A stretch of 64,000 nucleotides of DNA. Origin: Candidatus Rifleibacteriota bacterium (lineage in GTDB: Bacteria > Muiribacteriota > Ozemobacteria > Ozemobacterales > Ozemobacteraceae). How positions within the stretch are numbered: the first letter of the stretch is position 1; each line of letters starts with the position of its first letter. Location of the stretch: contig JANJUP010000022.1 in assembly GCA_024710525.1 (NCBI GenBank), positions 192,001-256,000 on the forward strand, given 5' to 3'. A program made the translations under genes and the position numbers. Below, in pieces: positions 17,122 through 52,945 of this stretch. The notes under the pieces were generated by a model, which saw nothing but the letters and a program-made list of their open reading frames with translations, was not told the origin of the DNA and made no database searches.

Positions 17122-17126
17122 AAACC

Positions 17127-17801
17127 ATGAACAGTATAGCCACACTTCTTGCCTTGTCATGTATTTTTCTGCTCGGTTCGAGCCGGTTGCTGATGTCGAT
17201 CAGAATGGTCGCTTTTCAGGGGCTGCTGCTGGGTATCCTGCCACTGGCCGCCGCCGGTGACGGCCATCTGTCGCTGGCTCTTATTTTTCTGTCGCTCGCC
17301 AGCATTGCGTTGAAAAGCATTCTGCTGCCCTGGCTGCTGAACAAGGCCATGGTCGATTCAGGCACCCGCCGAGAGATCGAGCCATTCATCAGCTTCGGCG
17401 CCTCGATGCTGCTCGGGCTTTTTCTGCTTGCCGTGTCTGGCTGGATCGTCGACAAGCTTCAGGCAACCGAGCCGGTGCCTTCGCCGGTTACCCTGATTGC
17501 AGGGTTTTATCTGGTTTTTTCGGGTCTGCTGCTGCTGATAACAAGACGCAAAGCGCTCACCCAGACCCTTGGCTTTCTTGTTCTCGAAAACGGGGTTTTT
17601 ACTGCCGGTCTCAGCCTTGGCAGCGAGTTCTCGGTGATGGTTGAACTGGGCATTCTGCTTGACGTCTTTGTCGGCATTTTCCTGATGGGTATCATGCTTT
17701 TTCATATTGACCGCGAATTCGACCACCTCGATGCCGACCGTTTCAATGAACTGTCTGACCTCGAAATTGCCGCTTCGCCCGATGAGGAGGTAGCAGAATG
17801 A
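17127..17801 (+). CDS. HyfE/NuoK-like small membrane subunit
   Basis: 224 aa with about 6 TM segments. Its position and size match hydrogenase-4 component E-like subunits. There is an acidic C-terminal tail. Confidence 0.7.
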   Translation: MNSIATLLALSCIFLLGSSRLLMSIRMVAFQGLLLGILPLAAAGDGHLSLALIFLSLASIALKSILLPWLLNKAMVDSGTRREIEPFISFGASMLLGLFLLAVSGWIVDKLQATEPVPSPVTLIAGFYLVFSGLLLLITRRKALTQTLGFLVLENGVFTAGLSLGSEFSVMVELGILLDVFVGIFLMGIMLFHIDREFDHLDADRFNELSDLEIAASPDEEVAE

Positions 17802-20856: not shown

Positions 20857-20864
20857 GGTGAAAT

Positions 20865-21623
20865 ATGTTTCAAATTCTTAAAGCCAGATTACATCAGGGT
20901 TATCGCACTTTTCCGTTCCCCGAAAAGCAGCCGCCCATGGCCCCCCGCTATGCCGGCCGCCCGAAAATTCTGCCGGGCAGCTGCAAAGGCGACTGTGCCG
21001 CCTGCGTCGGTGTCTGTCCGACCGGCGCTCTGTCACGCGGTGCCGGCAACCGCCCGGTAATCGATCTCGGCCGCTGTATCTTCTGCCGCGCCTGTGAAGA
21101 AGCCTGCGCCGAAAAGCTCATCAGTTTTACCCAGGAATTCTCGATGGCCGCCAATTCAAAAGAGGCGCTCGTCATAGCCGATGAAAAATTCAAACAGGCC
21201 GAAGCAATGGGCAATGAACTGCGCCGCCTGTTCGGCAGATCGCTCAAACTGCGCCAGGTCAGTGCCGGCGGCTGCAACGCCTGCGAAGCCGATACCAACG
21301 TGCTTGGAACCCCGAATTTTGACCTGGCGCGCTTTGGCATTCAGTTTGTCGCTTCGCCAAGACATGCCGACGGCCTGCTGATAACCGGCCCGGTGAGCCA
21401 GAACATGAAGCTCGCCATGCAGAAAACTTACGAAGCGTTGCCTTCGCCGTCAATTGTGATTGCTGTCGGCGCCTGTGCCGTTTCAGGCGGTCTGTTCAAG
21501 GGTAACAGTGAAGTCAATGATGGTGCCGCCGGTATTGTGCCCGTCGACCTTTTTGTGCCTGGTTGCCCGCCGCATCCCTGGACAATTCTCGAAGGTATTT
21601 TACGGTTTATGGGGCGCTTATAA
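20865..21623 (+). CDS. Fused 2x[4Fe-4S] ferredoxin (HycF/NuoI-like) plus NuoB/HycG-like small subunit
   Basis: The N-terminal part has CKGDCAACVGVCP and CIFCRACEEAC ferredoxin motifs. The C-terminal NuoB-like domain keeps the proximal-cluster ligands (GGCNACE, GACAVSGG, PGCPPHP). GAGGTG RBS. Confidence 0.85.
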   Translation: MFQILKARLHQGYRTFPFPEKQPPMAPRYAGRPKILPGSCKGDCAACVGVCPTGALSRGAGNRPVIDLGRCIFCRACEEACAEKLISFTQEFSMAANSKEALVIADEKFKQAEAMGNELRRLFGRSLKLRQVSAGGCNACEADTNVLGTPNFDLARFGIQFVASPRHADGLLITGPVSQNMKLAMQKTYEALPSPSIVIAVGACAVSGGLFKGNSEVNDGAAGIVPVDLFVPGCPPHPWTILEGILRFMGRL

Positions 21624-27807: not shown

Positions 27808-28596
27808 TTATTTCATTTTGCGTTTGACGAATTCATCGACGAAGAATGAAGCGACGTGCTCGGCATATTTGCCCGGGCCGAAGCCGGCATCGTAACCGAG
27901 TTCTTTGGCCAGATCGTTGGTGATGCGCGGGCCACCGGCAACCAGAACCACTTTGTTGCGCAGATTGGCGGCTTCAAGCAGTTCAACCAGTTCGACCATG
28001 TTGGTGACGTGGACGTCTTTCTGGGTGACGGTCTGCGAGACCAGCAGCACGTCAGCTTTTAGCTCGACCGCTTTTTTGACGAAATCTTCGTTGGTTACCT
28101 GACTGCCGAGATTGTAGGCTTCGATCATCTGGTAGCGCTCGAGCCCGTAGTGGCCGGCGTAACCCTTCATGTTCATGATCGCATCGATGCCGACGGTGTG
28201 AGCGTCGGTGCCGGTGCTGGCGCCAACGACGACGAGCTTGCGTCCGATGTTTTCTTTGATGAATTCATCGACGCCGTGCATGTCCATGATCGTTGAATCG
28301 ATGGTGGCGACCTTGATGCTGGTGATGTCGACCGTGTGAGTCAGGTTGCCATAGACGACGAAGAATGAAAAGTTCTTGTCGAGAGCTTCGTGATGCGAAA
28401 CCTGCACATCTGACAGGCCCATTTTGGCACCGAGCTGGCGGGCCGCTTCGATGGCGCGTTCGTCATCGGCAACCGGCAGGGTGAAGCTGAGCTGCACCTT
28501 GCCGTCGTTCATCGTGTCGCCATAGGGCTTGAGACGGGTCAGATCGAGTTCTTTACTGAAATTCTTCTCTTTGGTTGAATAAAGGCCGCTGCTCAT
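27808..28596 (-). CDS. kamE: Lysine 5,6-aminomutase beta subunit (B12-binding)
   Basis: 262 aa. It carries the DxHxxG cobalamin-binding motif (TDAHTVGID). Its size and its pairing with the alpha subunit fit kamE. The start overlaps the kamD stop (ATGA). Confidence 0.85.
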   Translation of the reverse strand: MSSGLYSTKEKNFSKELDLTRLKPYGDTMNDGKVQLSFTLPVADDERAIEAARQLGAKMGLSDVQVSHHEALDKNFSFFVVYGNLTHTVDITSIKVATIDSTIMDMHGVDEFIKENIGRKLVVVGASTGTDAHTVGIDAIMNMKGYAGHYGLERYQMIEAYNLGSQVTNEDFVKKAVELKADVLLVSQTVTQKDVHVTNMVELVELLEAANLRNKVVLVAGGPRITNDLAKELGYDAGFGPGKYAEHVASFFVDEFVKRKMK

Positions 28597-30152
28597 TTGT
28601 TGCCCCCCTTCAGCATCATGTCAACGAACGGGTTGAAATAGCTGCTCTGCTTTTCGACAACGCCATCGAGCCCCTTGCCACCGGTAAATGGTCGTTTGAC
28701 CCCGGCGAATTTGCCCTGTTCAAGAGTTTTGAACAGACCGTCGCGTCTGATATTTTCAAGCATGTTGCAGGCTTCGTTGAGAACCTGATTGGCGCGGGTG
28801 GTAATAATGCCGTCTTTCTTGAATTCAAGCTCATCGCCGAGATCGGCCATGGTATTGAAAATATAGCGGGCATTTTCTATCGAAAGGGCGCGGTCTGACA
28901 TCAGCGGCGTGTGAATCGCTTCGGTCAGCATGCCGAGCAGATGCAGTTTCTGGTTGGTCAGCACCGTCACCATATTGAACAGCGCATCCTGCACGTGGCC
29001 CCGGAAAATATTGCCGGTCTTGAACTTGGTCGGTGGCATATACTTCAACGGCGCTTTCGGAAAGATTTCTCGTGCCATCTGTGCCTGCGCCAGTTCATAA
29101 ACAAAGCCGTTTTTCAGGTCAGGGTTGATTTCGAACGCATGCCCTAGGCCCATCTGTTCTTCTGGAATGCCGCTGATCAGAGCGAACTGTTCATTGATGA
29201 ACTGCGAGGCCAACACGGTATGCGCCTCTTCGACGGCATCGGCAGTGGTCAGGTAATTGTCTTCGCCGGTATTGATGATTACGCCGGCAAAACCGTTGAT
29301 GATGCGCGAAAAATACTGGTCGACGAGAGTGCGCTGCATGTTGATGTCGCGGAACAGAATGCCATAGAGTGCGTCGTTGAGCATGACATCGAGGCGTTCG
29401 AGAGCGCCCATGGCGGCTATTTCAGGCATGCACAGGCCGGAGCAGTAGTTGCACAGCCTGATGTAGCGACCCTGCTTCTCTGATACCTCGTCAAGGGCGG
29501 CGCGCATCAGCCGGAAGTTTTCCTGGGTGGCAAAGGTGCCGCCAAAGCCTTCGGTAGTGGCGCCAAAAGGCACGAAGTCGAGCAGGCTCTGCCCGGTGGT
29601 TCTGATGACGGCGATGATATCGGCGCCCTGGTTGGCGGCAGCGCGGGCCTGAATGATGTCTTCGTAGATATTGCCGGTGGCAACGATTACGTAGAGATAG
29701 GGGCCTTTTTTGTCGCCGTAGCGGCCAAGGTATTCTTCCCGCTGGCGGCGGTTGCTTCTGATTCTTTCGACAGTCTGGCGGGCGATTTCTTCGATTCTGG
29801 CACGAATTTCAAACATGTCGGCCATTTTGAGCCGGGTGATGTCGAGTTCGCCACTGGCAACCGCTTCAGCGATCTGCTGCGGGGTTTTGCCGGTCTGAAT
29901 CATGGCATTGCCGATATAAGCCGAAAGGCCGAGGCTCAAACCGTTGTTACTGCGAATGTTGTCGACCAGAACGTTTGGCAGAGGTACACCCTGGGCATCG
30001 ACCCCGTCGATACCAAGCAGGCGGGCGACGGTCCGCTCGATTGTCACGCTGGTGTGCTTTTCGATGAACTTCTGGGTGTCGGCCGCGATTTCGCGGGCAT
30101 ACTGTCTGGCTTTGTCGACTATGGCAAAATTGAGATTGAGTTTGCTTTTCAT
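28593..30152 (-). CDS. kamD: Lysine 5,6-aminomutase alpha subunit
   Basis: 519 aa. It is the large PLP/TIM-barrel subunit family, sitting next to the B12-binding beta subunit. It lies in a lysine fermentation cluster with kamA, kdd and kce. Confidence 0.85.
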   Translation of the reverse strand: MKSKLNLNFAIVDKARQYAREIAADTQKFIEKHTSVTIERTVARLLGIDGVDAQGVPLPNVLVDNIRSNNGLSLGLSAYIGNAMIQTGKTPQQIAEAVASGELDITRLKMADMFEIRARIEEIARQTVERIRSNRRQREEYLGRYGDKKGPYLYVIVATGNIYEDIIQARAAANQGADIIAVIRTTGQSLLDFVPFGATTEGFGGTFATQENFRLMRAALDEVSEKQGRYIRLCNYCSGLCMPEIAAMGALERLDVMLNDALYGILFRDINMQRTLVDQYFSRIINGFAGVIINTGEDNYLTTADAVEEAHTVLASQFINEQFALISGIPEEQMGLGHAFEINPDLKNGFVYELAQAQMAREIFPKAPLKYMPPTKFKTGNIFRGHVQDALFNMVTVLTNQKLHLLGMLTEAIHTPLMSDRALSIENARYIFNTMADLGDELEFKKDGIITTRANQVLNEACNMLENIRRDGLFKTLEQGKFAGVKRPFTGGKGLDGVVEKQSSYFNPFVDMMLKGGNK

Positions 30153-30424
30153 CGTCTTCCCTTAACCTTGAAATATTTGCTCAATTATACCGCCGAAACG
30201 TCGTTTCTGCAGTATTTTTTTAGCCTTGCAGGCACCCGGGCACTTCTTACTGCAACTTTTCAGCTTTTTCCAGATGACAAGTTCACCAATATGCCTATAT
30301 ACTCATGGTAGATACAGTAAATAAAGATTCTGGTTTTCGGTCATGCCTGAGAGAGTTTGTTCCCCTGCGTTGTGTTTCACCGCAGATATATGACCACATT
30401 CGGCCTGGTTGGAGAGAAACAGAC

Positions 30425-32146
30425 ATGGCAAAACTGCCCGGCAGCATATATGACCGGCTTTTAATTATATGCATCTCACTGTTTCTGACCATCGTTATCT
30501 GGGGAGCATACATTTTTCGCGTCGAAAAAATGCTGCAGGACGAGAAACAAAGAATGGCAGACGAGGCTAAGACCTCTCTCGATGCTTCTGTGCAGCATAC
30601 CTTGATGTTGTTGAACCAGATCGGCGTTTTTCTGCGCAGTGTAAGAGAATTTTACGGTCATTGCCGTTCGGTTGAACAAACAGAAAGGTTCATCGAGGCC
30701 ATGCAGCTCGACCGGTCGCTTACCCCCAACTTTTTTCTGGTTGACGTCGACGGCAACTTTCTGATTCCACGCAATGGGGCCGGCCAGGGGCCGAATGTCG
30801 CCGACCGCAGTTATTTCAGATATCATCAGCAGAATCCTGGCGACAGCCTTTTTATTTCGGCAGTAGAGATTGGGCGCATTACCGGAAAATTTCACTTTCG
30901 AGTTGCTTTGCGAATCGACAAACCAGACGGGGCCTTCGATGGAGTCGCTCTCGTGACAGTCAGCCCGGAACTTTTTACCCGCTATTTCAAAGAATTGCAG
31001 CTGGGGCCTCAGTTTGTCGCGTCTTTAATCGGAATACACGACAGAAAAATGCGTGCCAGAATTCCGGAACCCGCAAATGACATGTGGGCCACAAGTCTGC
31101 AGAACCCCGAGTGGGAGAAGATAATTTTCGATGCTTCGGCAAGCTTTCAGACCAGAAGCCCGGTTGATCAGATTTATCGAAACTTTGTTTCCAAAAGGGT
31201 TGGTGACTTTCCTCTCGGAATGCTCGTCGGCTTTTCCGACGCGGATGTCATGAACCGGGTTGAAGAGGCAAAAAAATTATTGCAGCTGATTGCAATCATG
31301 CTGACCATTTTCCTTGCTGTCGTTGTAGTCGCGATGCTGGAAAAGGTTAAAGCCAACCAGCTGCTGCTGCAGCGAAACCAGCTGATGCTTGCAGATCTGG
31401 CTGCAGCCGCGAAAATTCAGAGTGCTTTGCTGCCCCGTACCGATTTTCTGAGTCACCGGGTTGATATGCATCTGCGCTTTTTACCCTGTAATCAGGTTGG
31501 CGGTGACATGGTCAACGTAATTCCATTTTCTGAGACCGAAATAGGAGTGTATTGTCTGGATGTGTCTGGTCATGGGATTCCGGCGGCTCTTACCGGAGTG
31601 GCGCTATCGCATATGCTGCGCAGCGACGGAAAAATTGTCAGCCAGATGCGGGATGGCAGCATTGTTCCCAATTCACCGGGCGAAATTATTGCCGGTCTGG
31701 AACGTGAGTTCCCCTTTGAGGAGCTGGGTCAGTATTTAACCATGGTTTTTTTGCTGATGGACCGTGCGAAAAACCAGCTGAAAATAGCTGCTGCCGGTCA
31801 TCCTGCACCATTACTGGTAATGCCGGACGGTCAGGTCGAAGAAATAAAAGTCGGTGGTTTACCGGTTGGCTTTGGTGATGGTGAGGTGCGTGAGGAAATT
31901 GTGATTGAGATTCCGGCCGGTGCGGCTTTGATTATCTATTCAGATGGTATTACCGAGCAGGCGGACTCGAAGGGCAGGCGATTTGGTACCGACAGGCTGA
32001 AAAAATCTCTGGCTGCGCATGCGCGCGATGGAGTTGTGGAAATGGTAGACGCTGTCTGGAACGAGCTTACGGCTTTTCGGGGCAAAGCATTGCGGGATGA
32101 CGACATGAGCCTGCTGGGTGTAAGTTTTCCGATTGAAAAAAAGTAA
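30425..32146 (+). CDS. Membrane sensor PP2C (SpoIIE/RsbU-type) Ser/Thr phosphatase with a periplasmic dCache-like domain
   Basis: The order is TM1, then about 270 aa periplasmic domain with Cache-like signatures (RSYFRYHQQNPGDSLFISAVEIGRITGKFHF), then TM2, a coiled coil and a PPM/SpoIIE domain (CLDVSGHGIPAALTGVAL). I prefer the ATG at 30425 (GGAGAG 8 nt upstream) over the track's ATG at 30305. Confidence 0.75.
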   Translation: MAKLPGSIYDRLLIICISLFLTIVIWGAYIFRVEKMLQDEKQRMADEAKTSLDASVQHTLMLLNQIGVFLRSVREFYGHCRSVEQTERFIEAMQLDRSLTPNFFLVDVDGNFLIPRNGAGQGPNVADRSYFRYHQQNPGDSLFISAVEIGRITGKFHFRVALRIDKPDGAFDGVALVTVSPELFTRYFKELQLGPQFVASLIGIHDRKMRARIPEPANDMWATSLQNPEWEKIIFDASASFQTRSPVDQIYRNFVSKRVGDFPLGMLVGFSDADVMNRVEEAKKLLQLIAIMLTIFLAVVVVAMLEKVKANQLLLQRNQLMLADLAAAAKIQSALLPRTDFLSHRVDMHLRFLPCNQVGGDMVNVIPFSETEIGVYCLDVSGHGIPAALTGVALSHMLRSDGKIVSQMRDGSIVPNSPGEIIAGLEREFPFEELGQYLTMVFLLMDRAKNQLKIAAAGHPAPLLVMPDGQVEEIKVGGLPVGFGDGEVREEIVIEIPAGAALIIYSDGITEQADSKGRRFGTDRLKKSLAAHARDGVVEMVDAVWNELTAFRGKALRDDDMSLLGVSFPIEKK

Positions 32147-32181
32147 AAACCGAGAGTTGATCGGCGCTTTCGAGAAAACCG

Positions 32182-33642
32182 TTACGACTGGTAATGGCGG
32201 CGTAATATAGCGAGAAATTCGGAGTCGAGACCAAGGATCGTGGCAATGTGCATCGCATCTTTTGGTACCTGATAGTCATCGTTGATTTTCAGCAGCCGGT
32301 AATCCATTTTTTCACACAGTTTTTGTAGAAGTGTCTCGCGGTCGGTATGTTCTTCAATAGTGTTTTTGTCTTTAAGGCCGATTACCTGATAATAAGCTGC
32401 CCCCTCGATTCTTATGCCATCGAAGTGTGTGGCAATAATTCCGTATGACCCGCTTTGCTGCAGAAACTCGCCGAGGGCCTGCACAAACCTGCTGCCCTCA
32501 GAGGGGTTCGTCGATCTGGCGAATTCGTCACAGACGGCAAGCCCGATTCCCTGACGGGTCAGGGCGGTCAGTTCGCTGAGTCTGATTATTTCAGCGCCGA
32601 AACTGCTCAGACCCGATGCCTGGTTCTGGCCATCGCCGGCGATCAGGCAGATAAAGTCAAACAGCGGCATGCAGAAGCGGCGCGCAAAAACGAAAAAGCC
32701 AAGGGTCGCCAGCTCGGCATTCATGGCCAGGGTCAGCAGAGCTACAGATTTGCCGCCCATGTTGGCTCCGGTCAGTAGTGTCGTGCCCGGACTCAGCTCG
32801 ATCGATACCGGCGTGAACTGTTTGCCACGACTGGCAAGAATTGCCTCTACTTCAGGGTTTATCATCTCTTCTGCCCGCAACGGCACTTTTTCGGCGGCGG
32901 CGAACACTTCCGGGCAGGTGCAGTTAAATTGGCAGGCCAGGCGGGTTTTGGCGAGCAGCAGTTCAAAACGTCCGGCAGCCAGACCGTTATGCCGCATTCT
33001 TGTGACCCATTCGAGCAGCTGTCTGCCGAGATTTTCTCTGACCAGGTGCTCTTCAGCCTTTTCTGACTGAACCAGGCGCGCCCGCTGATCGCGCAGTTCA
33101 TCGCGCTTCTGCTGGTCAGTACACTGCAATATGCAATTTTCGAGCTGAATTTTTTCGGCTCTGATCTCTTTGAGCTTCTGCGAATAGGCCTCGTGTACGT
33201 GAAACGAAGTGACTACTGTGCGGTCAGGATTGAGAATTTTGATAACCGGTTCGATGTCGCTGAACGAAACTGATGGCAGCTGCAGACCAGATCGCTCATA
33301 CCAGTTTTTCAGGCTGGTGAGCAGCATCGCAAAACCTTTGATTTCGAGCAGCTCCGTTTCGTCGGGTACCTGTCCGGCTTCGAGATTGTCGAGCGAGCCG
33401 TTGATGTAACGCAGGCACTTAAAAATACTGCCGGCCTGATCAAAAAAACTTTTATCGTTCCGGGCAGCAGTAACCATGATTTCAAGTTCAGCAAGGCTCT
33501 GGCGCAACTGTTCCAGCTGATCAGATTTTGCCGGTCGCAGGTTTTTAAGAGCTTCGCGGCCGTAGAGCGATTCTATCTGCAGCTCAGAAAGCAGCCAGGC
33601 AACCCCGGGGGTGCTGGCGCGGTATTTTTTCTGTCTATGCAT
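32182..33642 (-). CDS. MutS domain-V-like ABC ATPase (MutS2-related; no Smr domain seen)
   Basis: A MutS-type Walker A motif (TGANMGGKS) is present. I chose the ATG at 33642 (AGAAAGG upstream, 2 nt after the upstream stop); the track's start at 33747 would overlap the upstream gene by 113 nt. Confidence 0.65.
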   Translation of the reverse strand: MHRQKKYRASTPGVAWLLSELQIESLYGREALKNLRPAKSDQLEQLRQSLAELEIMVTAARNDKSFFDQAGSIFKCLRYINGSLDNLEAGQVPDETELLEIKGFAMLLTSLKNWYERSGLQLPSVSFSDIEPVIKILNPDRTVVTSFHVHEAYSQKLKEIRAEKIQLENCILQCTDQQKRDELRDQRARLVQSEKAEEHLVRENLGRQLLEWVTRMRHNGLAAGRFELLLAKTRLACQFNCTCPEVFAAAEKVPLRAEEMINPEVEAILASRGKQFTPVSIELSPGTTLLTGANMGGKSVALLTLAMNAELATLGFFVFARRFCMPLFDFICLIAGDGQNQASGLSSFGAEIIRLSELTALTRQGIGLAVCDEFARSTNPSEGSRFVQALGEFLQQSGSYGIIATHFDGIRIEGAAYYQVIGLKDKNTIEEHTDRETLLQKLCEKMDYRLLKINDDYQVPKDAMHIATILGLDSEFLAILRRHYQS

Positions 33643-34687
33643 GCTGGGGCGCCTTTCTGCCGAATGTTTGATTCTGTGCAGCACACACATCGAAAATCGG
33701 CAGGTTGATTTTTTCAGACAGGTTCCGGCAGAGCTCTGCACCGTCAAGCTTCAGGCCTGATGGTGCGGTCGGATTGACCGTCACCGCTATCAGATTGACC
33801 TGGCGTCTGACCGCCAGTCTGGCACCACGGTCGATCAGGTCACATTTCTGGCGGCTGTTGATGAGATATCTGGTGCCGTCTTCGGCGACAAGCTGCAGCC
33901 ATTCGAGCCGTCGGCACTTATCGAGCAGTCGCTGCAGCATTGGCCTGGTTACGGCGCCGTTGAACAAAGCCGTGGTTGGTTGCCCGCTGCGGCCGGCGAT
34001 CTGGTCGGCACATTCGTCGCTGAGCGCGCTGACCCTGCCGCAGATGTTACCGTCCTGGTCGAGAAGAATACAATTGTTGGCATCTTCACTTTTGCACGTA
34101 AAAGCTGCATCTGACTTGAATTCTGGCAGAGTGAGAAGTCCGGTGTAATGGCGGGTCTGCTCGACAATATCATCGGAGTTTGGCGAAAATGCTGCCCCGG
34201 TTGCCAGTATGCAGGCCTCTGAACTGGCGATTGCCGCAGTAGACTTGCGGGCGGCGGCGCCGTCGACGAGAACCTGTGTGGCGCCAAGTTCGTGCAGCAT
34301 ACTGATCAATGCCGACATCTGCGCCGTGGTAGAGGGTCCGGCGATCTGGGCAAAACCATCGCTGCGGGCTCTGGTGATAACGACCTCGCCCATCGGTGTG
34401 TTAAAGCCGGTAAAACGCAGAAGCTCACGGGTAAAATCACATTGCCCGAGAAGACTGCTGGCTGTGGCAACCATTGTGCCACAGCCAACATATATCGACG
34501 GTTTGTCAGTTCCGGTCACCTGATCGGTATCTTCACCATCGTAGCCGATCGAGGTGATCGCCTGAACCACGGGCGGTCTGCTGCTGAGAAGATGGTTGAG
34601 CACCGTTGTTTTGCCGGCATTTTTTTCCATGCCGATGATGGCAACGCAGCTGTAACCTTCGATCAGTTCAGCAAGTGACCTGCCCAT
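33635..34687 (-). CDS. P-loop NTPase of unknown function, embedded in the lysine fermentation cluster
   Basis: Walker A motif IIGMEKNAGKTT. 350 aa. Its start lies 3 nt after the kamA stop. I recognise no family. Confidence 0.5.
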   Translation of the reverse strand: MGRSLAELIEGYSCVAIIGMEKNAGKTTVLNHLLSSRPPVVQAITSIGYDGEDTDQVTGTDKPSIYVGCGTMVATASSLLGQCDFTRELLRFTGFNTPMGEVVITRARSDGFAQIAGPSTTAQMSALISMLHELGATQVLVDGAAARKSTAAIASSEACILATGAAFSPNSDDIVEQTRHYTGLLTLPEFKSDAAFTCKSEDANNCILLDQDGNICGRVSALSDECADQIAGRSGQPTTALFNGAVTRPMLQRLLDKCRRLEWLQLVAEDGTRYLINSRQKCDLIDRGARLAVRRQVNLIAVTVNPTAPSGLKLDGAELCRNLSEKINLPIFDVCAAQNQTFGRKAPQHA

Positions 34688-34690
34688 TGT

Positions 34691-35962
34691 TCATGATCTT
34701 TTTTTGCGTTTTTTGCGCTTCAAACCTTCGGGTTCGAGCGAAATTTTGCCCTGATGCAGGCCGGCAACGCCTTCGATTTCGACGTCGCCCTTCTGGCAGG
34801 CATCACATTTGCAGCTCGGTTTGTAACCCTCGGGTTCGTTATAGCAGGTGATGACACCTTCATAATTGCGCAGAATCGTCTTCTCGTAGCCGCTCGAAAT
34901 CAGGTAATTCGGCATTACCGGAATCTTGCCGCCACCACCCGGTGCGTCAACCACGTAAGTCGGCACGCAGAAACCGCTGGTATGGCCGCGCAGACCTTCG
35001 ATTATCTCGATGCCCTTGGCTACCGGGGTTCTGAAGTGTGACAGCCCGTAAGAAAGGTCGCACTGATAGATGTAATAAGGTCTTACTCTGACTTTGACCA
35101 GCTCATGCACCAGCTTGCGCATTACATGAACGCAGTCGTTGACACCGGCCAGCAGAACCGACTGGTTCCCGATCGGAATTCCGGCATAACTCAGCAGTTC
35201 GCAGGCTTTGGCGGCGTCGGTGGTGATTTCTTTCGGATGGTTGTAGTGGGTGTTGACCCAGATCGGGTGATACTTCTTGAGCATATCGCAGAGCTCGGGC
35301 GTAATGCGCTGAGGCAGAACGACCGGGGTGCGGGTGCCGATTCTGATGATTTCGACGTGCGGAATGGCGCGCAGTTTCTGCAGAATGCCTTCGAGTTTAT
35401 TGTCTGCCAGCAGCAGCGGGTCGCCGCCCGAGACGACGACGTCGCGAATCTGCGGATTGGCTGCAATATACTCAATGGCCTTGTCGATGTGGCTGCTGGG
35501 CATTGCCGTGTCTTTCTGACCGGCAAAGCGTCTGCGGGTGCAGTGGCGGCAATACATCGAGCACTGGTCGGTGACCAGAAGCAGGGCGCGGTCAGGGTAG
35601 CGGTGGGTCAGTCCGTGAACTGGCGAATCGCCGTCTTCGTGCAGCGGGTCTTCGAGATCGGCCGGCGAACGATAAAGTTCGAGGTCGGTCGGAATAGCCT
35701 GCTTGCGCACCGGATCATTGGGGTTGTCCGGATCGATGAGGGTCAGATAATACGGCGTAATCGCCATGCGCAGGGTTGTCAGACAGTCTTTGACGCCGTC
35801 GACTTCCATTTCGGTCAGCTTAACGTATTTTCTGAGATCGTCGATGGTTTCGATACGGTTGCGGACATGCCATTTCCAGTCGTTCCAGTCGGTGTCGCTG
35901 ACGTTCGGAAACAGCTTTGCCCGTCGCTGAATGTGCTCATCACGAGTGTAACTGCTGTTCAA
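34691..35962 (-). CDS. kamA: L-lysine 2,3-aminomutase (radical SAM)
   Basis: Very close to characterised KamA sequences (SDTDWNDWKWHVRNRIET; CSMYCRHCTRRRFAGQ radical-SAM Cys triad; HVEIIRIGTRTPVVLPQRITPEL; PYYIYQCDLS; VVDAPGGGGK). TTG start at 35962 with GGAAAGGA upstream. Confidence 0.95.
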   Translation of the reverse strand: MNSSYTRDEHIQRRAKLFPNVSDTDWNDWKWHVRNRIETIDDLRKYVKLTEMEVDGVKDCLTTLRMAITPYYLTLIDPDNPNDPVRKQAIPTDLELYRSPADLEDPLHEDGDSPVHGLTHRYPDRALLLVTDQCSMYCRHCTRRRFAGQKDTAMPSSHIDKAIEYIAANPQIRDVVVSGGDPLLLADNKLEGILQKLRAIPHVEIIRIGTRTPVVLPQRITPELCDMLKKYHPIWVNTHYNHPKEITTDAAKACELLSYAGIPIGNQSVLLAGVNDCVHVMRKLVHELVKVRVRPYYIYQCDLSYGLSHFRTPVAKGIEIIEGLRGHTSGFCVPTYVVDAPGGGGKIPVMPNYLISSGYEKTILRNYEGVITCYNEPEGYKPSCKCDACQKGDVEIEGVAGLHQGKISLEPEGLKRKKRKKRS

Positions 35963-36003
35963 TTACTGATTCCTTTCCCTGTTGGGGCACTTTGTGAGGT
36001 GTC

Positions 36004-37047
36004 TCAGCAGTACATTTCTTCGAAAAGTTTGCGGAGTGCCGGGCTTTCGCGCAGAACCTGCAGCGAAATGGCGGCGTGGTCTTTGCAGTAGCCATTACCG
36101 ATGATCATGTTAACGTCTTTGCCAACGCCTTCAGCGCCAAGAGCAGCCTGAGTGAAGCTGGTGGCCATGCTGAAGAAATAAACGGTGCCGCCTTCTCTGC
36201 AGGAGAGAATGCTTGCCATTTCGGTGTTGGGGATGTTAACGCAGTTGATTACCAGGTCAGCGAGCTTGCTATCGGTAAGAGCGCTGATTTTGTTGTAGAT
36301 GCTGATTGCATCAGTGGCGTCAGCGGCGAAATATTCGTCGGCGAGACCGAGCTGGCGGGCGCGTTCGGTGCTCTTTTCTGAGCCGCCGATGCAGATTACC
36401 TTGCCGGTGATGCCGGCGCGTTTTTTCGCTTCATACAGGCAGAGAAGACCTGATTTTCCGCCGCCGCCGATTACAACGACGATGTCGCCGGGGCGAACGA
36501 GCTTGGCAGCCTGAGCAGGGGCACCGGCCACGTCGAGAACCGAGAGGGCGAGGGTTTCGGGCATATCATTCGGCAGAACGGCATAGATGCCGCTTTCAAA
36601 CAGAATTGCCTGGCCCTTGATGTCGACCTGGTCGATGTCGGGTCTTACTTCGAGAATTTTTTCGATTTTGAGCGGGGTGAGAGAGAGAGAGACGAGAGTG
36701 GCGATCTTGTCGCCGACTTTCAGCGGGGTTTTCCCTTTGAGGGCCGGGCCGATTTCTTTAACGGTGCCGATCAGCATCCCGCCTGAACCGGTAACCGGGT
36801 TTTTGTGCTTGCCCTGCTTTTCAACGAGGCCCATCATGATTTTCTTGATCTCTTCGATATCATGGTTGGCCTGTTTTTCGATCTGGGTGAAACTGGCTGA
36901 GTCGACATTGAGAGTCCTGACGTCGATCAGAATCTCGTTGTCATAAATCTCCATGGTGTTGTCGATTCTGAGTGCCGGCTGCGGCAGAACGCCTTTGGGC
37001 TCGATAACACGGTGGGTTCCATAGGGGCATCCTTTTTTCACAGTCAT
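36004..37047 (-). CDS. kdd: L-erythro-3,5-diaminohexanoate dehydrogenase
   Basis: 347 aa. It is an NAD(P)-binding Rossmann protein (VVVIGGGGKSGL). Its N-terminal region resembles Kdd. It sits between kamA and the CoA transferase genes. AGGAGA RBS. Confidence 0.85.
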   Translation of the reverse strand: MTVKKGCPYGTHRVIEPKGVLPQPALRIDNTMEIYDNEILIDVRTLNVDSASFTQIEKQANHDIEEIKKIMMGLVEKQGKHKNPVTGSGGMLIGTVKEIGPALKGKTPLKVGDKIATLVSLSLTPLKIEKILEVRPDIDQVDIKGQAILFESGIYAVLPNDMPETLALSVLDVAGAPAQAAKLVRPGDIVVVIGGGGKSGLLCLYEAKKRAGITGKVICIGGSEKSTERARQLGLADEYFAADATDAISIYNKISALTDSKLADLVINCVNIPNTEMASILSCREGGTVYFFSMATSFTQAALGAEGVGKDVNMIIGNGYCKDHAAISLQVLRESPALRKLFEEMYC

Positions 37048-37164
37048 TTCTCCTTGCGTATGTTGATTTTATGAAGACTTTGCTATGTACAAAACAGAAC
37101 CTTGCTCAGCTATGATAGCAGCAAATATTCAACTTACCAACCGGGAATTTTTCAACCCCCGGGC

Positions 37165-37830
37165 TTAAACTTCCATCGTTTTCAGATTATCTGAAACTAT
37201 GAAATCGGCTTCAGTGTTTGCGCGTATTTCGTCGATGGTCGTGTCTTTATTGATCTCGATCAGAGCGAGGCCACCCGGGGTGACCCTGAAAACGCCAAGT
37301 TCGGTTACGATCATGTTGACAACGTGGCGTGCCGTCAGCGGCAGGCGGCATTTTTTGAGAATCTTCGGCTTGCCGCGCTCGGTGTGCAGTGTCGAAACGA
37401 TGACGTTTTTAGCGCCGACGACGAGGTCCATCGCGCCGCCCATTCCAGGAACCTTCTTGCCCGGGATGATCCAGCTGGCGAGGCTGCCTTCCTGGTCGAC
37501 TTCGAGGGCGCCAAGAACCGTGTATTCAACGTGCTTGCCGCGAATCAGGGCGAACGACATGGCGCTGTCGAAATAGCAGCCGTGTGGCAGAATCGTGACC
37601 ATGGCGCCGCCGGCATTGGTGAGTTCCGGGTTTTCTTTGCCCGGTTCGGGGGCGGGGCCCATGCCGATCATGCCGTTTTCAGACTGGAGAATGACATTGA
37701 CGCCCTGTGGGATATGATTGGCAACCATGGTCGGCAGGCCGATACCCAGGTTAACCAGCTGATTGTTCTTGAATTCGCGGGCGATGCGCTTCGCGATAAT
37801 GTTTTTGGCCAGTTCGATATCTTCGATCAT
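37165..37830 (-). CDS. 3-oxoacid CoA-transferase, B subunit
   Basis: 221 aa. It has the typical AtoA/ScoB N-terminus ([23 protein letters not shown]) and glutamate active-site region (ENGMIGMGP). Confidence 0.85.
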
Positions 37831-37848
37831 CTTGTTGCTCCTTGCCCG

Positions 37849-38508
37849 TCAGCGTTTTTCGGATTTGAAAATATGGGTGACCAGCGGGCCCGGGGTCATT
37901 ACCAGTTCGGGCATCAGTTCGCCTGGTTCAACCAGTTTTTCGGCTTCAACCACGACAACGCCGGCAGCCATAGCCATCAGCGGGTTGAAGTTGCGGGTAG
38001 TTGCGTTGTAAACGACGTTGCCGGCCTTGTCGACACTGCTGCCGTTGATAATGGCCAGGTCAGCGCGCAACGGCAGTTCGAGCAGATACTCGTGGCCGTC
38101 GACGGTGATTTTCTGCTTGCCCTCTTCAACGACGGTGCCGACACCAGTTGGGGTCAGCACGCCGCCGAGCCCGGCACCGGCGCATCTGATGCGTTCAGCC
38201 AGAGTGCCCTGCGGAACCAGTTCGACGTTGAGGGTGCCTTCGACCATCTGTTTGCCGGTCTCAGGGTTGGTGCCGATATGTGAAGTGATGACCTTTGCCG
38301 CCTGCTTGGCGGCAACCAGGCGGCCAACGCCGCGGTCGACGAACGAGGTGTCGTTGCAGATAAGAGTAAGGTTTTTGGCACCGCTGGCGAGAATGAGGTC
38401 GATCAGCGTTTCGGGGGTGCCGCAACCAAGAAAACCGCCAACCATGATGACCATGCCGTCTTTGATCAGGCTGGTAAAGTCATTTTTGTTGATAATCTTG
38501 TCAAACAT
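37849..38508 (-). CDS. 3-oxoacid CoA-transferase, A subunit
   Basis: 219 aa, AtoD/ScoA-like (DGMVIMVGGFLGCGTPETL). It lies directly upstream of the B subunit. Confidence 0.85.
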   Translation of the reverse strand: MFDKIINKNDFTSLIKDGMVIMVGGFLGCGTPETLIDLILASGAKNLTLICNDTSFVDRGVGRLVAAKQAAKVITSHIGTNPETGKQMVEGTLNVELVPQGTLAERIRCAGAGLGGVLTPTGVGTVVEEGKQKITVDGHEYLLELPLRADLAIINGSSVDKAGNVVYNATTRNFNPLMAMAAGVVVVEAEKLVEPGELMPELVMTPGPLVTHIFKSEKR

Positions 38509-38535
38509 CAGTTGAGCCTTTCCTTATTATTTTAC

Positions 38536-39360
38536 TCAGCGGGGCTTGAGACCGAGAATGGCGCGGGCTTCGTCGGGGGTGGCGATTTCACGGCCGAGTT
38601 CTTTGGCGATGCGCACCGCTTTGGCGACCAGTTCGCCGTTAGAAGTGGCGAGAACACCTTTCGACAGGTAGGTGTTGTCTTCAAAACCAACCCTGACGTG
38701 GCCGCCAAGCAGAATGGCGGTAGTGGCCATCTGGAACTGCGATCTGCCGATACCGGAAACGGTAAAGGTACTGCCGGCCGGAATACTGCCCTGCATGTAA
38801 ACCACGTCGCGAACACTGGCGCTGATACCGCCGGTAACGCCCATAACGAAGTTAAAATGCATCGGCGACGCGATAAAGCCTTTTTTCTGTAGTCTGATCG
38901 CCGTGTCGATCATGCCCTTGTCGAATACTTCGACTTCGGGTTTGACGCCGAGTTCGAGCATTTTTTTGCCGAAGGCGATGATCGTGTTTTCGGAATTGAC
39001 GAAGATATCGTCGTTGCCGAAATTCACGGTGCCGCAGTCGAGAGTCGCCATTTCAGGCTTCAGATCGACCGGCTGCAGGCGTTCTTCGTTCGACATGCCG
39101 ACGGCGCCGCCGGTCGAAGGCTGAATGATGGCCTTCGGGCAGCGTTCCTGAATGGCATTGATCGCGGCACGAAAGCGCTCACGACTCTGGGTCGGAGTGC
39201 CGTTGTCTTCGCGCACATGCAGATGAATGATCGATGCGCCAGCGTTAACTGCCGATTCGGCTTCACGCACCAGTTCGGCGATTGTATAAGGTACCGCCGG
39301 GTTATTTTCTTTGGTTACTTCAGCGCCGCAGATGGCGGCAGTAATGATGAGTTTTTCCAT
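38536..39360 (-). CDS. kce: 3-keto-5-aminohexanoate cleavage enzyme (BKACE / DUF849 family)
   Basis: 274 aa. It belongs to the BKACE TIM-barrel family (IITAAICGAEVTKENNPAVPYT...ASIIHLHVRED), and its lysine-fermentation context fits kce. Confidence 0.85.
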   Translation of the reverse strand: MEKLIITAAICGAEVTKENNPAVPYTIAELVREAESAVNAGASIIHLHVREDNGTPTQSRERFRAAINAIQERCPKAIIQPSTGGAVGMSNEERLQPVDLKPEMATLDCGTVNFGNDDIFVNSENTIIAFGKKMLELGVKPEVEVFDKGMIDTAIRLQKKGFIASPMHFNFVMGVTGGISASVRDVVYMQGSIPAGSTFTVSGIGRSQFQMATTAILLGGHVRVGFEDNTYLSKGVLATSNGELVAKAVRIAKELGREIATPDEARAILGLKPR

Positions 39361-39371
39361 GTTTCCCTGCC

Positions 39372-40625
39372 TCAGTATTTCTTTTCGTCGACGAACGAAA
39401 GTGATTCGTCAATTGCCTTGAGCGTGTATTTGAGATCTTCATCAGTGTGCCGGTAGCAGATGTAACCGTGGTGATACGGCTGCAGGAACACCTTGCGTCT
39501 GATCAGCTGGGTATAGAAGTCGACGCGCTTTGCCTTGTAGGTTTTCGACTCGTCTTTGTTGAAAGTGACGAAAGGCATCTGTGGCACCGGAGAAGCGCCG
39601 GTCGAAACTTTGTGCTTTGCCAGAACCTTGCCGAGCTCAGCGTTGAACCATTCACCCTTGGCTTTGATCACATCGAGAACCTTGTCGCGTTCGAGCATTT
39701 CGATGGTTTTGAGAGCGGCGGCGAATTCAAGGCTGTTCGGGAAGAAAGTCGATGAAATGAAAACTTCCTTTTCGATTTTTTTCATGAACTGCGCTTTGCC
39801 GACACAGGCGCCGATCGGGTAACCATTCGCCATTGCTTTGCCGAAGGTTGACAGGTCGGGGGTGACGCCAAACAGGGTCTGGGCGCCACCGATATGAACT
39901 CTGAAGCCGGAGCGGATTTCGTCAAAAATAAGAACCGCGCCGTATTTGTCGGCCAGAGCTCTTACGCCTTCGAGAAAGCCGGGTTTCGGATATTCGACCT
40001 GCTCGGCGAGGGGGTGCCCGATCGGGGTAACGATGATGGCAGCAGTCTGGTCGCCATGCTGCTTCATCAGATCTTCGAGCTGTTCGAGATGGTTATAGTG
40101 AAATTCATAAACATCTTCATAGAGTTTGGCAGGAACGCCACCTTTTACTTCGACGCACCAGTCATGCCAGCCATGGTACCCGCAGCGCATGATCTTGTTC
40201 CGGCCAGTGTAGCCACGGGCAACGCGGGTTGCCAGAGTTGTGGCATCTGAGCCGGTTTTGACGAAAACGGTCATTTCGGCACATTTGATCAAGTTTTTCA
40301 ACTTAACTGCCAGCTGATTCTGAATTGGCTGGGTGAGAGAAAAACAGAAGCCTTTGTTGCGCATCTGGTCGATTGCGGCGTTATCGATTTCTTCTTCGCG
40401 GTGGCCGATGATGATCGGGCCGTAGGCACAAAGGTAATCGAGATATTCGTTGCCGTCGATATCGGTTATTCTGCCGCCTTTACCGTGGTCGAAATATATC
40501 GGGTATTCGCCCTCGACAAAGTTGTATGGGCGTCTGATACCGAGAACACCACCCGGGGTGCAGGTCTTGCCGTGTTCGAATTCGGCCATGCTTTTCTTTA
40601 AATTGAGCTTCGGTGCGTCGTACAT
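39372..40625 (-). CDS. Class III (glutamate-1-semialdehyde aminomutase-like) PLP aminotransferase. Candidate 3-aminobutyryl-CoA aminotransferase (Kat-like).
   Basis: Class-III aminotransferase fold, with the PLP-lysine region (FDEIRSGFR...). It sits where kal (the ammonia lyase) is found in canonical clusters. I prefer the ATG at 40625 with GGAGG upstream. Confidence 0.7.
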   Translation of the reverse strand: MYDAPKLNLKKSMAEFEHGKTCTPGGVLGIRRPYNFVEGEYPIYFDHGKGGRITDIDGNEYLDYLCAYGPIIIGHREEEIDNAAIDQMRNKGFCFSLTQPIQNQLAVKLKNLIKCAEMTVFVKTGSDATTLATRVARGYTGRNKIMRCGYHGWHDWCVEVKGGVPAKLYEDVYEFHYNHLEQLEDLMKQHGDQTAAIIVTPIGHPLAEQVEYPKPGFLEGVRALADKYGAVLIFDEIRSGFRVHIGGAQTLFGVTPDLSTFGKAMANGYPIGACVGKAQFMKKIEKEVFISSTFFPNSLEFAAALKTIEMLERDKVLDVIKAKGEWFNAELGKVLAKHKVSTGASPVPQMPFVTFNKDESKTYKAKRVDFYTQLIRRKVFLQPYHHGYICYRHTDEDLKYTLKAIDESLSFVDEKKY

Positions 40626-40749
40626 AATTCCTTCCCTCCTGATATATGTTCTGATGAGGTAAAACAAGCTGCGAATCAAGTATTGAACCACTTGCAGGGC
40701 AAATCAGCCGCAGCCTTGTTAATGCTATCACAAACTCTGGTTTCTTTCT

Positions 40750-40790
40750 GCAAAAAAAAATCCCCCGTTGCCGGGGGATTTTCGCTGGTT
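40750..40790 (-). terminator. Rho-independent terminator of the acidic repeat protein gene
   Basis: An 8-bp GC stem (atcccccg / ttgc / cgggggat). On the minus strand it is followed by a 9-U tract (the plus-strand A9 at 40752-40760). Confidence 0.6.
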
Positions 40791-40796
40791 TTAAAG

Positions 40797-41456
40797 TCAG
40801 TCTTCAGAAGAACTGTCGTCAGATGAGCTGTCTGTAGCCGACGAATCTGCGTCAGAGTCATCGCTGCCGCTGTCTGAATCGCCCGAGTCATCAGAACTAC
40901 CGGAATCTGAGTCCCCGGAGTCGCCCGAATCGTCAGAGTCATCCGGTTTATCAGAGTCACCCGAATCGTCTGGGTTGTCAGAGTCGCCCGAATCATCCGG
41001 CTTGTCCGAATCATCGGTATCATCCGAATCTCCAGAATCTCCAGAATCACCGGAGTCGCCTGAGTCGCCCGAATCACCGGAATCACCCGAATCACCCGAA
41101 TCACCCGAATAGCCTGAGCCTGAACTTCCGGAAGAAGATCCGGAGGCGCTGTCTGGAACGCTTTCCCAGGTGTCGGCCTTGATTTCTTTGCCTACGAGGG
41201 TACCTTCAATTTTGATATCTTTGTTTTCATACTGCTCGGCAATGGCCTTGCCGTTTTCATCCATAACCAGTGTGTAGGTTACCGGATTACCGGCGCCATC
41301 ACGATTGCTGGTCTGAAGGACAGCGCCGCTGATCTGCCTGCTGGCATCTCTGGTAACGGTAATCATGCCGGAAAAGAATGCAGCAGAAGCAGAGGCCAGG
41401 GACATGGCAAAGAACCCTGCCGCCAGGGCGGCAACGGTAATTTTTTTGGATCTCAT
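40797..41456 (-). CDS. Secreted protein with a long acidic Ser/Gly/Asp (SGD)n low-complexity tail
   Basis: A signal peptide is followed by a folded domain of about 100 aa. The tail is about 110 aa of GDSGDSGDS...DDSGDSDKPDDS repeats with strongly negative charge. Confidence 0.7.
   Translation of the reverse strand: MRSKKITVAALAAGFFAMSLASASAAFFSGMITVTRDASRQISGAVLQTSNRDGAGNPVTYTLVMDENGKAIAEQYENKDIKIEGTLVGKEIKADTWESVPDSASGSSSGSSGSGYSGDSGDSGDSGDSGDSGDSGDSGDSGDSDDTDDSDKPDDSGDSDNPDDSGDSDKPDDSDDSGDSGDSDSGSSDDSGDSDSGSDDSDADSSATDSSSDDSSSED
40985..41110 (-). repeat. Coding tandem repeats (9/18-bp units, gaatcaccc-like) encoding (SGD)n
   Basis: Seen directly, for example ccggaatcacccgaatcacccgaatcacccgaat. 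It is a length-variable microsatellite-like stretch. Confidence 0.6.
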
Positions 41457-52573: not shown

Positions 52574-52945
52574 TCAGGCTTCGGCAAGACTGCTGAGGCG
52601 GCGGAAAAGAATTTTCTCTGCGACATGATCGGGGCTGAATGCTTCTTTCAGCTGCTTATAGGCTTTTCTGGCTTTGTCGTGACTGCCGCAGGTGAAAATG
52701 TCGATCTGCACGGCCTGATGCTCGGGCCATGTATGCAGAGTTATGTGAGATTCGGTCAGCAGTGCCGCCGCGGTATAACCGGAGGGCTCGAACTGATGCG
52801 ACCTTATCAGAACACAGCTCAAGCCACTGGTTTCGATTGCGCGATGCAGAATCATTTCACCACTGTGGCTTCGCTCAAGCAGTTCTGGCCGGCAGCCGCT
52901 GAAATCGGCAATGATATGAATGGCATCCGGTCTCAGAGGGCCCAT
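52574..52945 (-). CDS. speH: S-adenosylmethionine decarboxylase proenzyme (small class 1a, SpeH-type)
   Basis: 123 aa. It matches bacterial/archaeal SpeH (IIADFSGC; the ESHITLHTWPE processing site at Ser of ESH). It overlaps the speE end by 13 nt. Confidence 0.85.
   Translation of the reverse strand: MGPLRPDAIHIIADFSGCRPELLERSHSGEMILHRAIETSGLSCVLIRSHQFEPSGYTAAALLTESHITLHTWPEHQAVQIDIFTCGSHDKARKAYKQLKEAFSPDHVAEKILFRRLSSLAEA

Follow-up and report, generated by a model that had tools for sequence, protein, structure and literature searches.

Gene, cluster and membrane topology

The stretch of DNA analysed here (64,000 nt, positions 192,001 to 256,000 of contig JANJUP010000022.1 from Candidatus Rifleibacteriota bacterium; hereafter the window) carries a lysine-fermentation gene cluster, in the middle of which lies a gene for a membrane phosphatase with a periplasmic dCache sensor domain and a cytoplasmic PPM/PP2C (SpoIIE-type) domain. 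All coordinates are positions in this stretch, and residue numbers refer to the 573-aa product read from the ATG at 30425; the features are collected in Table 1. From kamE (27808) to kat (40625), the phosphatase gene is the only gene on the plus strand, and it parts kamD and kamE from kamC, kamB, kamA, kdd, ctfAB, kce and kat. An earlier note on this DNA, made from the letters alone, had described the same arrangement, which the list of open reading frames (ORFs), Pfam and NCBIfam confirm. In the ORF list, the sole plus-strand frame amid this minus-strand run extends over 30305-32146. The ATG at 30425 is the likely start codon, since GGAGAG precedes it, since the orthologous loci agree in the sequence around it, and since the orthologue P0003 begins at the equivalent Met.

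The surrounding genes make up a complete set for lysine fermentation and are identified by NCBIfam, with scores (and cutoffs) of 446.9 (300) for KamC, 313.6 (210) for KamB, 617 (525) for AblA, 275 (200) for KDD and 446.5 (382) for KCE, and by Pfam for the CoA-transferase subunits (CoA_trans) and kat (Aminotran_3). KamC is a MutS-like reactivase ATPase, and kamB and kamC are the reactivase genes. The gene kal is absent from the cluster, and a class-III (HemL-like) aminotransferase gene at 39372-40625 (minus strand) stands in the place of Kat, showing that this is the Kat variant of lysine fermentation. This variant, in which Kat uses alpha-ketoglutarate, has been described from a digester metagenome (PMC3149608). 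The kat gene likely starts at the ATG at 40625, which is preceded by the ribosome-binding site (RBS) AGGAGGG, and not at the GTG at 40691 given in the ORF list.

Hydropathy analysis of the phosphatase places two strong transmembrane (TM) segments on either side of a loop of about 250 aa. In an AlphaFold2 (AF2) model of the full-length protein, with a predicted local distance difference test score (pLDDT) of 84.7, the last helix of the dCache domain, TM2 and the residues up to 334 form one helix, which is followed by the PP2C fold. Between TM2 and the phosphatase, neither Pfam nor the full-length model shows a HAMP domain or any other cytoplasmic module. The order of a TM segment, a periplasmic Cache-like domain, a second TM segment and a PPM/SpoIIE phosphatase, as read in the earlier note, is therefore supported by hydropathy, by AF2 modelling with a fold search, and by Pfam.

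Table 1 The phosphatase gene, its parts and its surroundings in the window
Feature	Position	Strand	Basis
dCache-PP2C membrane phosphatase gene, 573 aa, stop codon included	30425..32146	+	ORF, orthologues, Pfam, dN/dS
TM1, aa 11-31, runs into the Cache stalk helix	30455..30517	+	hydropathy peak 2.6; AF2 full-length helix aa 6-80
Periplasmic dCache domain, aa 32-284: stalk helix and two PAS-like modules	30518..31276	+	AF2, Foldseek, family profile
Clade-specific L162 and D172	30908-30910 and 30938-30940	+	family alignment
TM2, aa 285-306	31277..31342	+	hydropathy peak 2.9; within single helix aa 272-334 (AF2 full-length)
Cytoplasmic helical linker, aa 307-340, without HAMP, homologous to the REC-PP2C linker of P. 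aeruginosa RssB	31343..31444	+	phmmer, NCBIfam, AF2
PPM/PP2C (SpoIIE-type) phosphatase domain	31445..32143	+	Pfam PF07228, PDB relatives, motifs
kamE, lysine 5,6-aminomutase beta subunit	27808-28596	-	NCBIfam equivalog 399.6 vs 280; Pfam
kamD, lysine 5,6-aminomutase alpha subunit, divergent from the phosphatase gene	28593-30152	-	NCBIfam equivalog 929.6 vs 600; Pfam
kamC, kamB, kamA, kdd, ctfB, ctfA, kce, kat; convergent with the phosphatase gene	32182..40625	-	NCBIfam, Pfam
Sigma-70-like phosphatase promoter (predicted), ATGACA-18 nt-TATACT	30274..30303	+	consensus scan, 10/12 matches
Putative kamDE promoter: -10 TATAAT (30189-30184), spacer palindrome GAAACG-N-CGTTTC (30195-30207)	30184..30207	-	read from sequence
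Small hairpin and T-run in the 35-nt gap between the convergent phosphatase and kamC stops	32149..32165	-	terminator-like site, weak

Sensor and phosphatase domains

The sensor domain (residues 32-285) was modelled by AF2 from an alignment of eight sequences, with a pLDDT of 88.6 and a predicted template modelling score (pTM) of 0.84. The model consists, in its own numbering, of a helix at 2-49, strands at 71-148 and at 167-240, and a closing helix at 241-253, i.e., a stalk helix and two alpha/beta modules. A Foldseek search of the PDB with this model gave 3LIF (rpHK1S-Z16) as the best match (E 7e-17, template modelling score 0.71-0.77, identity about 22%), followed by PctA, Mlp37, Tlp3, CtaA and KinD, and nearly all of the top 50 PDB matches are dCache domains. 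Thus, the Cache-like character of the periplasmic domain, which the earlier note had left to structure prediction, holds in the AF2 model and its fold matches. The Pfam scores for dCache_1 (PF02743; 16.7 bits vs. 45) and dCache_1_like (PF22588; 20.7 bits vs. 27) remain below threshold. However, 49 of the 60 closest sensor relatives match PF02743 at E of 1e-3 or better, and 3LIF is found at E 4e-33 with a profile built from the sensor family, so that the low scores reflect divergence and not another fold. Otherwise, this family profile finds KinD and DctB alone in the PDB, both weakly, and matches no amino-acid chemoreceptor there.

HMMER, run exhaustively against 1.84 billion representatives, returned 5383 sequences related to the sensor domain at E of 1e-3 or better, 54 of them at E of 1e-30 or better. 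The outputs among the 60 closest relatives include 36 histidine kinases and 14 GGDEF proteins, and a SpoIIE output is found in the window protein only. By these sequence comparisons, the sensor is part of a large, generic 3LIF/GcbC-like dCache subfamily that is usually fused to histidine kinases or GGDEF domains.

The membrane-distal module of the sensor contains an RxYF motif (R128-S-Y130-F131), the Arg of which is kept in 114 of 137 relatives. Further arginines follow at R151 (+23) and at R159/R163 (+31/+35), a spacing like that of 3LIF (R, R+23, R+34/35). Crystals of 3LIF contained citrate. In its relative GcbC, an arginine triad that starts at the RxYF Arg mediates the response to citrate and isocitrate, and a paralogue responds to succinate (PMC6050961). 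The Arg in the aligned DRSFF motif of KinD appears, from our own count based on the construct numbering, to be R131, which is mutated in 4JGQ/4JGR. Because the RxYF Arg and the further arginines match the 3LIF/GcbC pattern, the ligand is most likely a carboxylate-bearing small periplasmic molecule, e.g., an organic acid.

The earlier note had pointed to the pockets of amino-acid-binding dCache domains for comparison. The AA_motif of the dCache_1AA domains consists, in PctA numbering, of Y121, R126, W128, Y129, Y144 and D173, with D173 being essential (PMC8915833). We anchored the comparison on RxYF/RxWY, so that the register is one of sequence and not of structural superposition. In this register, the Arg alone is kept, and Y121 is replaced by Pro, W128 by Tyr and Y129 by Phe. 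The interval allowed for the equivalent of Y144 (residues 145-149, S A V E I) holds no aromatic residue, and the equivalent of D173 is T178, a position occupied by T, A or S across the 137 relatives and never by Asp. The comparison thus leaves the Cache-like fold standing, whereas the residues defining dCache_1AA are, in the register used, missing.

Pfam assigns residues 371-568 to SpoIIE (PF07228; E 3.8e-35, 122 bits vs. a cutoff of 25). In the alignment to RssB and 6K4E, all four Asp motifs (GD, DxxGHG, DG and DD) are present as GGD361, D379VSGHG, SD507G and D558-D559-D560, and D361, D379 and D559 are invariant or nearly so in the alignment A7. With its catalytic motifs intact, the domain is predicted to be active as a Ser/Thr phosphatase. 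Among solved proteins, its sequence is closest to P. aeruginosa RssB (3ES2/3EQ2, E 2e-23), ahead of the serine phosphatase 6K4E (1e-11) and Rv1364c (1e-6), and the phmmer alignment to 3EQ2 begins at RssB residue 141, within the linker between receiver and phosphatase. The NCBIfam model RssB_Pseudo matches residues 309-512 with 80 bits, and the SiaA model matches residues 310-568 with 47.9 bits. Since both scores lie far under the equivalog cutoffs of 700 bits, the window protein is neither RssB nor SiaA.

As the earlier note had remarked for STAS and anti-sigma antagonist partners, none is encoded nearby: neither a STAS protein nor an anti-sigma kinase (HATPase_c_2) was found in the 64 kb of the window by Pfam on all likely genes and small intergenic ORFs, or by phmmer with STAS and HATPase_c_2 fusion proteins against ORFs of at least 50 aa. 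The nearest relatives of the PP2C domain are proteins with a receiver domain (REC) fused to SpoIIE (P0007, P0009 and P0010), which have a conserved Hpt neighbour. These proteins also have no adjacent STAS gene, suggesting that an orphan placement is common in this PP2C subfamily, and their context does not indicate a substrate.

Distribution, selection and promoters

A scan for KamD with one genome per species (GTDB) yielded 80 loci, onto which all genes of the cluster were mapped. The nearest KamD locus belongs to an uncultured metagenome-assembled genome from a digester, of the same clade (98%), and is followed by those of Candidatus Riflebacteria, Ozemobacteraceae and Rifleibacteriota (80-85%). 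The phosphatase gene occurs near kamD in the window clade only (the window and L001-L006), i.e., in one clade among the 80 kamD genomes, and a relaxed tblastn search with the two domains taken separately found no homologue of either one at a distance of up to 10 kb from kamD in any of the remaining 79 genomes. The co-occurrence with kam genes that the earlier note had proposed to look for is thus confined to this clade.

In the Ozemobacteraceae/Rifleibacteriota loci L010 and L012, kamC abuts kamD with a gap of about 70 nt, and kamC also lies directly before kamD (within tens of bases) in most of the Firmicutes, Fusobacteria and Zixibacteria loci in which kamC was detected. In three other Riflebacteria loci (L007-L009), kamDE is detached from the remaining cluster, showing that the kamC/kamD junction has been broken more than once in the phylum. 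The genes upstream of kamD in these three loci are unrelated ones (RF3, an MFS/cNMP-binding protein, DUF2325 and FHA-GAF-GGDEF), and no alternative conserved regulator is found there. The most plausible reading of the phosphatase gene's position between kamB/kamC and kamD/kamE is an insertion, specific to this lineage, at an unstable junction.

The KamD scan also recovered KamD/KamE in loci of Asgard archaea (Promethearchaeota and Hodarchaeota; L058, L061, L062, L071 and L084) and of an uncultured archaeon (L035), with a KamD identity of 68-71% to the window. The longer contigs among them (L058, L071 and L035) carry kat, kce, kdd and kamA as well. In L058, L062, L071 and L035, the interval from kamB to kamD yielded no KamC homologue.

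Relatives of the sensor domain were followed separately in metagenomes with the closer alignment A6, which gave 80 loci with no kam gene and no PP2C domain among them. The closest of these relatives lie in ordinary two-component operons, beside response regulators of the NtrC, AraC, OmpR and HD-domain (HD_5) types. The neighbours of the nearest relatives, being response regulators, offer no clue to the ligand.

Full-length orthologues of the phosphatase fall into three 90%-identity clusters only (P0001, 100%; P0002, 84%; P0003, 82%), and their contigs are collinear with the window over at least 20 kb. The dN/dS ratio is 0.14-0.17, alike in sensor, linker and phosphatase, with a dS of about 0.6 that is as high as or above that of the flanking genes. 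By comparison, dN/dS ratios are 0.01-0.04 for the enzymes on either side and 0.14 for KamB. The gene is under purifying selection, much less constrained than the enzymes. The collinear contigs and a dS like that of the neighbours show that the gene was already in place before the three species diverged. However, since these species are collinear over more than 20 kb, its retention is not specific to this gene. Composition gave no clear signal of foreign origin, the GC content at third codon positions (GC3) of 0.53 being that of other sensor genes.

The two hexamers of the predicted phosphatase promoter, ATGACA and TATACT, are invariant in the three species, whereas the spacer and the 5′ untranslated region diverge. 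The consensus match and this conservation predict that the gene has its own conserved promoter. On the other side of the intergenic region, some 100 nt of sequence ahead of kamD hardly vary among the three species and include a perfect 6-1-6 palindrome (GAAACGTCGTTTC / GAAACGNCGTTTC), of which kamD has the only exact copy in the window, with one mismatch in L005. This palindrome is a candidate operator for a transcription factor, and its location in the putative kamD promoter suggests that kamDE is controlled directly by a DNA-binding repressor and not by the phosphatase.

Several other regulatory candidates were considered. An upstream motif shared by kamD and kat (CCTGCAAG) was rejected, with 4 matches vs. 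2.9 expected. Upstream of kat, a CRP/FNR-like site (TGTGATAGCATTAACA; 40717-40732, minus strand) is invariant in the three species; a single match of this kind is not significant alone, because at least one occurs in 15% of shuffles. With the palindrome exact only at kamD and the CRP-like site only upstream of kat, there is no operator common to the two genes. A sigma-54 promoter was sought by eye in the intergenic region 30153-30424 and discarded, the best candidate (GGGCAC...CTGCA) being mis-spaced and not conserved in L001 or L005. No Rfam family reaches threshold, and hence there is no lysine riboswitch. Terminator-like sites, such as the hairpin between the phosphatase and kamC stops, are in this region not more numerous than expected from shuffles. 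A strong intrinsic terminator lies at about 40755-40785, behind the gene preceding kat (region 40717-40785, minus strand).

Further observations concern other parts of the window. The frame at 40797-41456 (minus strand) encodes a 219-aa protein of no family that begins with a signal-peptide-like segment and contains a long, acidic repeat region of Gly, Asp and Ser; across species, the protein measures 219, 240 and 246 aa, and a small, possibly conserved ORF of 43-56 aa lies upstream. A second dCache sensor of the window is a 1174-aa hybrid histidine kinase (dCache_1, PAS, HisKA, HATPase_c, REC, Hpt) at 48773-52297 (minus strand). A 2287-aa protein at 4447-11310 (minus strand) has weak Ig-like and MG2 matches only. 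Six genes at 14201-21623 (plus strand) are Mrp-antiporter/complex-I-like (NuoL/M-like, NuoH-like, fused NuoC/D-like and a ferredoxin-NuoB-like fusion), and the cluster is reminiscent of an energy-converting hydrogenase of the membrane-bound kind or of an Mbx-type complex. Finally, an AdoMet decarboxylase gene (52574-52945, minus strand) adjoins the gene for a spermidine-synthase-domain membrane protein (52933-54474, minus strand), a polyamine synthesis pair unrelated to the phosphatase.

Possible signal, partner and role

SpoIIE is among the catalogued outputs of dCache_1 domains (PMC8915833). The architecture of dCache_1 and SpoIIE is thus not new, and a TM RsbU with a periplasmic metabolite sensor is already known in Chlamydia. 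In Chlamydia trachomatis RsbU, which is reported to sense alpha-ketoglutarate and to dephosphorylate STAS proteins (PMC11619594), as in the window protein, two TM segments flank a periplasmic ligand-binding domain and the PPM phosphatase lies in the cytoplasm. However, the partners of the Chlamydia protein are known (RsbV and RsbW), whereas none is encoded in the window for the protein described here, which also lacks a HAMP domain or any further module between TM2 and the phosphatase. In the PDB sequence and fold searches, no sequence relationship between the two was seen, and Chlamydia RsbU was not among the matches.

The closest solved phosphatase is P. aeruginosa RssB (PA2798; 3EQ2, 3ES2 and 3F7A), with which the linker can be aligned and the DVSGHG motif is identical. 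We note two differences between these proteins. First, RssB has a cytoplasmic receiver domain, whereas the window protein has a membrane dCache sensor. Second, RssB adjoins its STAS partner RssC, the rsbV homologue rssC being in one operon with it and needed for the adaptor function of RssB. The catalytic domain is also related to that of P. aeruginosa SiaA (SiaABCD), the PP2C protein named ‘biofilm regulation protein phosphatase SiaA’ in NCBIfam, which we take to be the protein in 6K4E. SiaA is membrane-anchored and acts on the partner-switch protein SiaC, and SiaB, SiaC and SiaD are encoded beside it, whereas nothing comparable to these three is found in the window. Both SiaA and Rv1364c work on STAS-like partners.

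On the sensor side, rpHK1S-Z16 (3LIF) and P. fluorescens GcbC belong to the same dCache subfamily and have the RxYF motif and the Arg at +23 and about +34 in common with the window protein. Their output is GGDEF, whereas that of the window protein is PP2C, and the window clade has Leu at the most conserved distal Arg and an extra Asp172. The dCache_1AA Ser/Thr phosphatases (e.g., Tautonia marina WP_152054232.1; Gumerov et al. 2022) have the same dCache_1 and SpoIIE architecture and carry Y-x4-R-x-W-Y...Y...D, of which the window protein keeps the Arg only.

We favour, with a probability of roughly 55%, the reading that the gene encodes a functional, lineage-restricted TM sensor phosphatase, a domain-shuffled representative of the known fusions of dCache sensors to SpoIIE/PP2C outputs, with a carboxylate-type periplasmic ligand and a partner encoded elsewhere, and that it was inserted at an unstable junction of the cluster. 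The gene itself, its topology, the dCache fold, the catalytic motifs, purifying selection, the conserved promoter and the restriction to one clade form the basis of this reading. The 3LIF/GcbC-like dCache domain would bind a small periplasmic molecule, most likely a carboxylate, and the signal would pass through TM2 and one uninterrupted helix, without a HAMP domain, to the RssB/RsbU-type PPM phosphatase. The helical linker may toggle the phosphatase on and off, and the phosphatase would then strip phosphate from Ser/Thr of a partner encoded elsewhere, most probably a STAS-type partner-switching protein. The continuous helix fits a published model (PMC12143880) in which PPM dimers are governed by crossing helical linkers, and in which phosphatases, kinases and GGDEF proteins can exchange their sensor modules.

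Several points weigh against this reading. The partner and the output protein are predictions, and the ligand class is predicted from a register against 3LIF, GcbC and KinD that was set on sequence. Within the family, the window clade alone combines L162, a position at which 92% of the relatives have Arg, with D172, which is mostly Gly or Ala in the relatives; this pair makes the distal module less positive, and the ligand could differ from that of the family. Moreover, lysine and beta-lysine bear a carboxylate, too. The gene has been kept in the cluster in three species (dS about 0.6), divergent from kamDE and with the two promoters about 90 bp apart, and such a back-to-back layout is classic for a pathway-specific regulator.

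An alternative that we regard as possible, at perhaps one chance in four, is that the protein serves the cluster as its dedicated regulator, which senses lysine, beta-lysine or a pathway-related acid in the periplasm (e.g., 2-oxoglutarate, acetoacetate, acetate or butyrate) and whose phosphatase switches the pathway on via a phospho-protein. Its place in mid-cluster, the conserved promoters back to back with kamDE and its maintenance under purifying selection in three species speak for this role, and the loss of positive charge through L162 and D172 is compatible with an amino-carboxylate ligand. The alpha-ketoglutarate that the Chlamydia TM RsbU reportedly senses in the periplasm is, in addition, the co-substrate of Kat. 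However, the gene is missing from 79/80 kamD genomes, including the nearest Ozemobacteraceae/Riflebacteria, and its retention in collinear species is unspecific. The sensor departs from the AA_motif, the essential Asp being found in no family member, and its relatives in the 80 metagenomic loci are never near kam genes. The window holds no partner or target, and no significant motif is common to the kamD and kat promoter regions. The proposal of the earlier note, a phosphatase that senses lysine or beta-lysine and controls the pathway, is therefore not supported by synteny in related genomes or by the dCache_1AA residues; position is the tie to lysine that remains, and a link to lysine fermentation is possible.

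A more specific variant, which we consider improbable, is that of a regulator private to the clade for a fermentation that depends on B12 and radical SAM chemistry. Here, the dCache domain would have been retuned to lysine, beta-lysine or a pathway acid via the change from Arg to Leu162 and via Asp172, and the phosphatase would exert its control after translation or by way of a partner switch, e.g., by acting on KamB/KamC, on KamDE or on a STAS protein gating kam transcription.

It is likewise unlikely that the protein, like rpHK1S-Z16, is a receptor for the quorum or interspecies signal autoinducer-2 (AI-2) and that its phosphatase relays population density. This idea draws on 3LIF being the best structural and profile match, and on a report that the 3LIF ligand-binding domain binds AI-2 with a dissociation constant (Kd) of 0.18 uM and that AI-2 stimulated its cyclase activity (PMC7584622). 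However, the same paper states that 3LIF has none of the five PctA residues, and the same 3LIF crystal contained citrate. The identity to 3LIF is only about 22%, and nothing in the window indicates AI-2 metabolism.

Lastly, a decaying or mis-called ORF, i.e., a functionless remnant of an insertion, might be suspected from a non-synonymous rate 5-10 times that of the flanking enzymes and from a GC3 below theirs (0.63-0.72), but this is essentially refuted by the purifying selection seen in every domain, by the absence of frameshifts and stops in the three species, by the intact catalytic motifs, the confident AF2 models of both domains and the conserved promoter and RBS, and by a GC3 equal to that of the other sensor and membrane genes of the window.

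To our knowledge, control of an amino-acid fermentation through Ser/Thr phosphorylation from a periplasmic signal has not been described. If the phosphatase does control lysine fermentation, it would provide an unusual periplasmic input to amino-acid fermentation via Ser/Thr dephosphorylation, in a host phylum that is poorly known and whose Riflebacteria relatives come from anaerobic digesters. The kamC/kamD junction marks a rearrangement point in this phylum. The protein itself is a natural example of a sensor module of histidine kinases and diguanylate cyclases that has been grafted, via a continuous helix, onto an RssB-like PPM phosphatase, which fits the view of these modules as an ‘exchangeable toolkit’ (PMC12143880).

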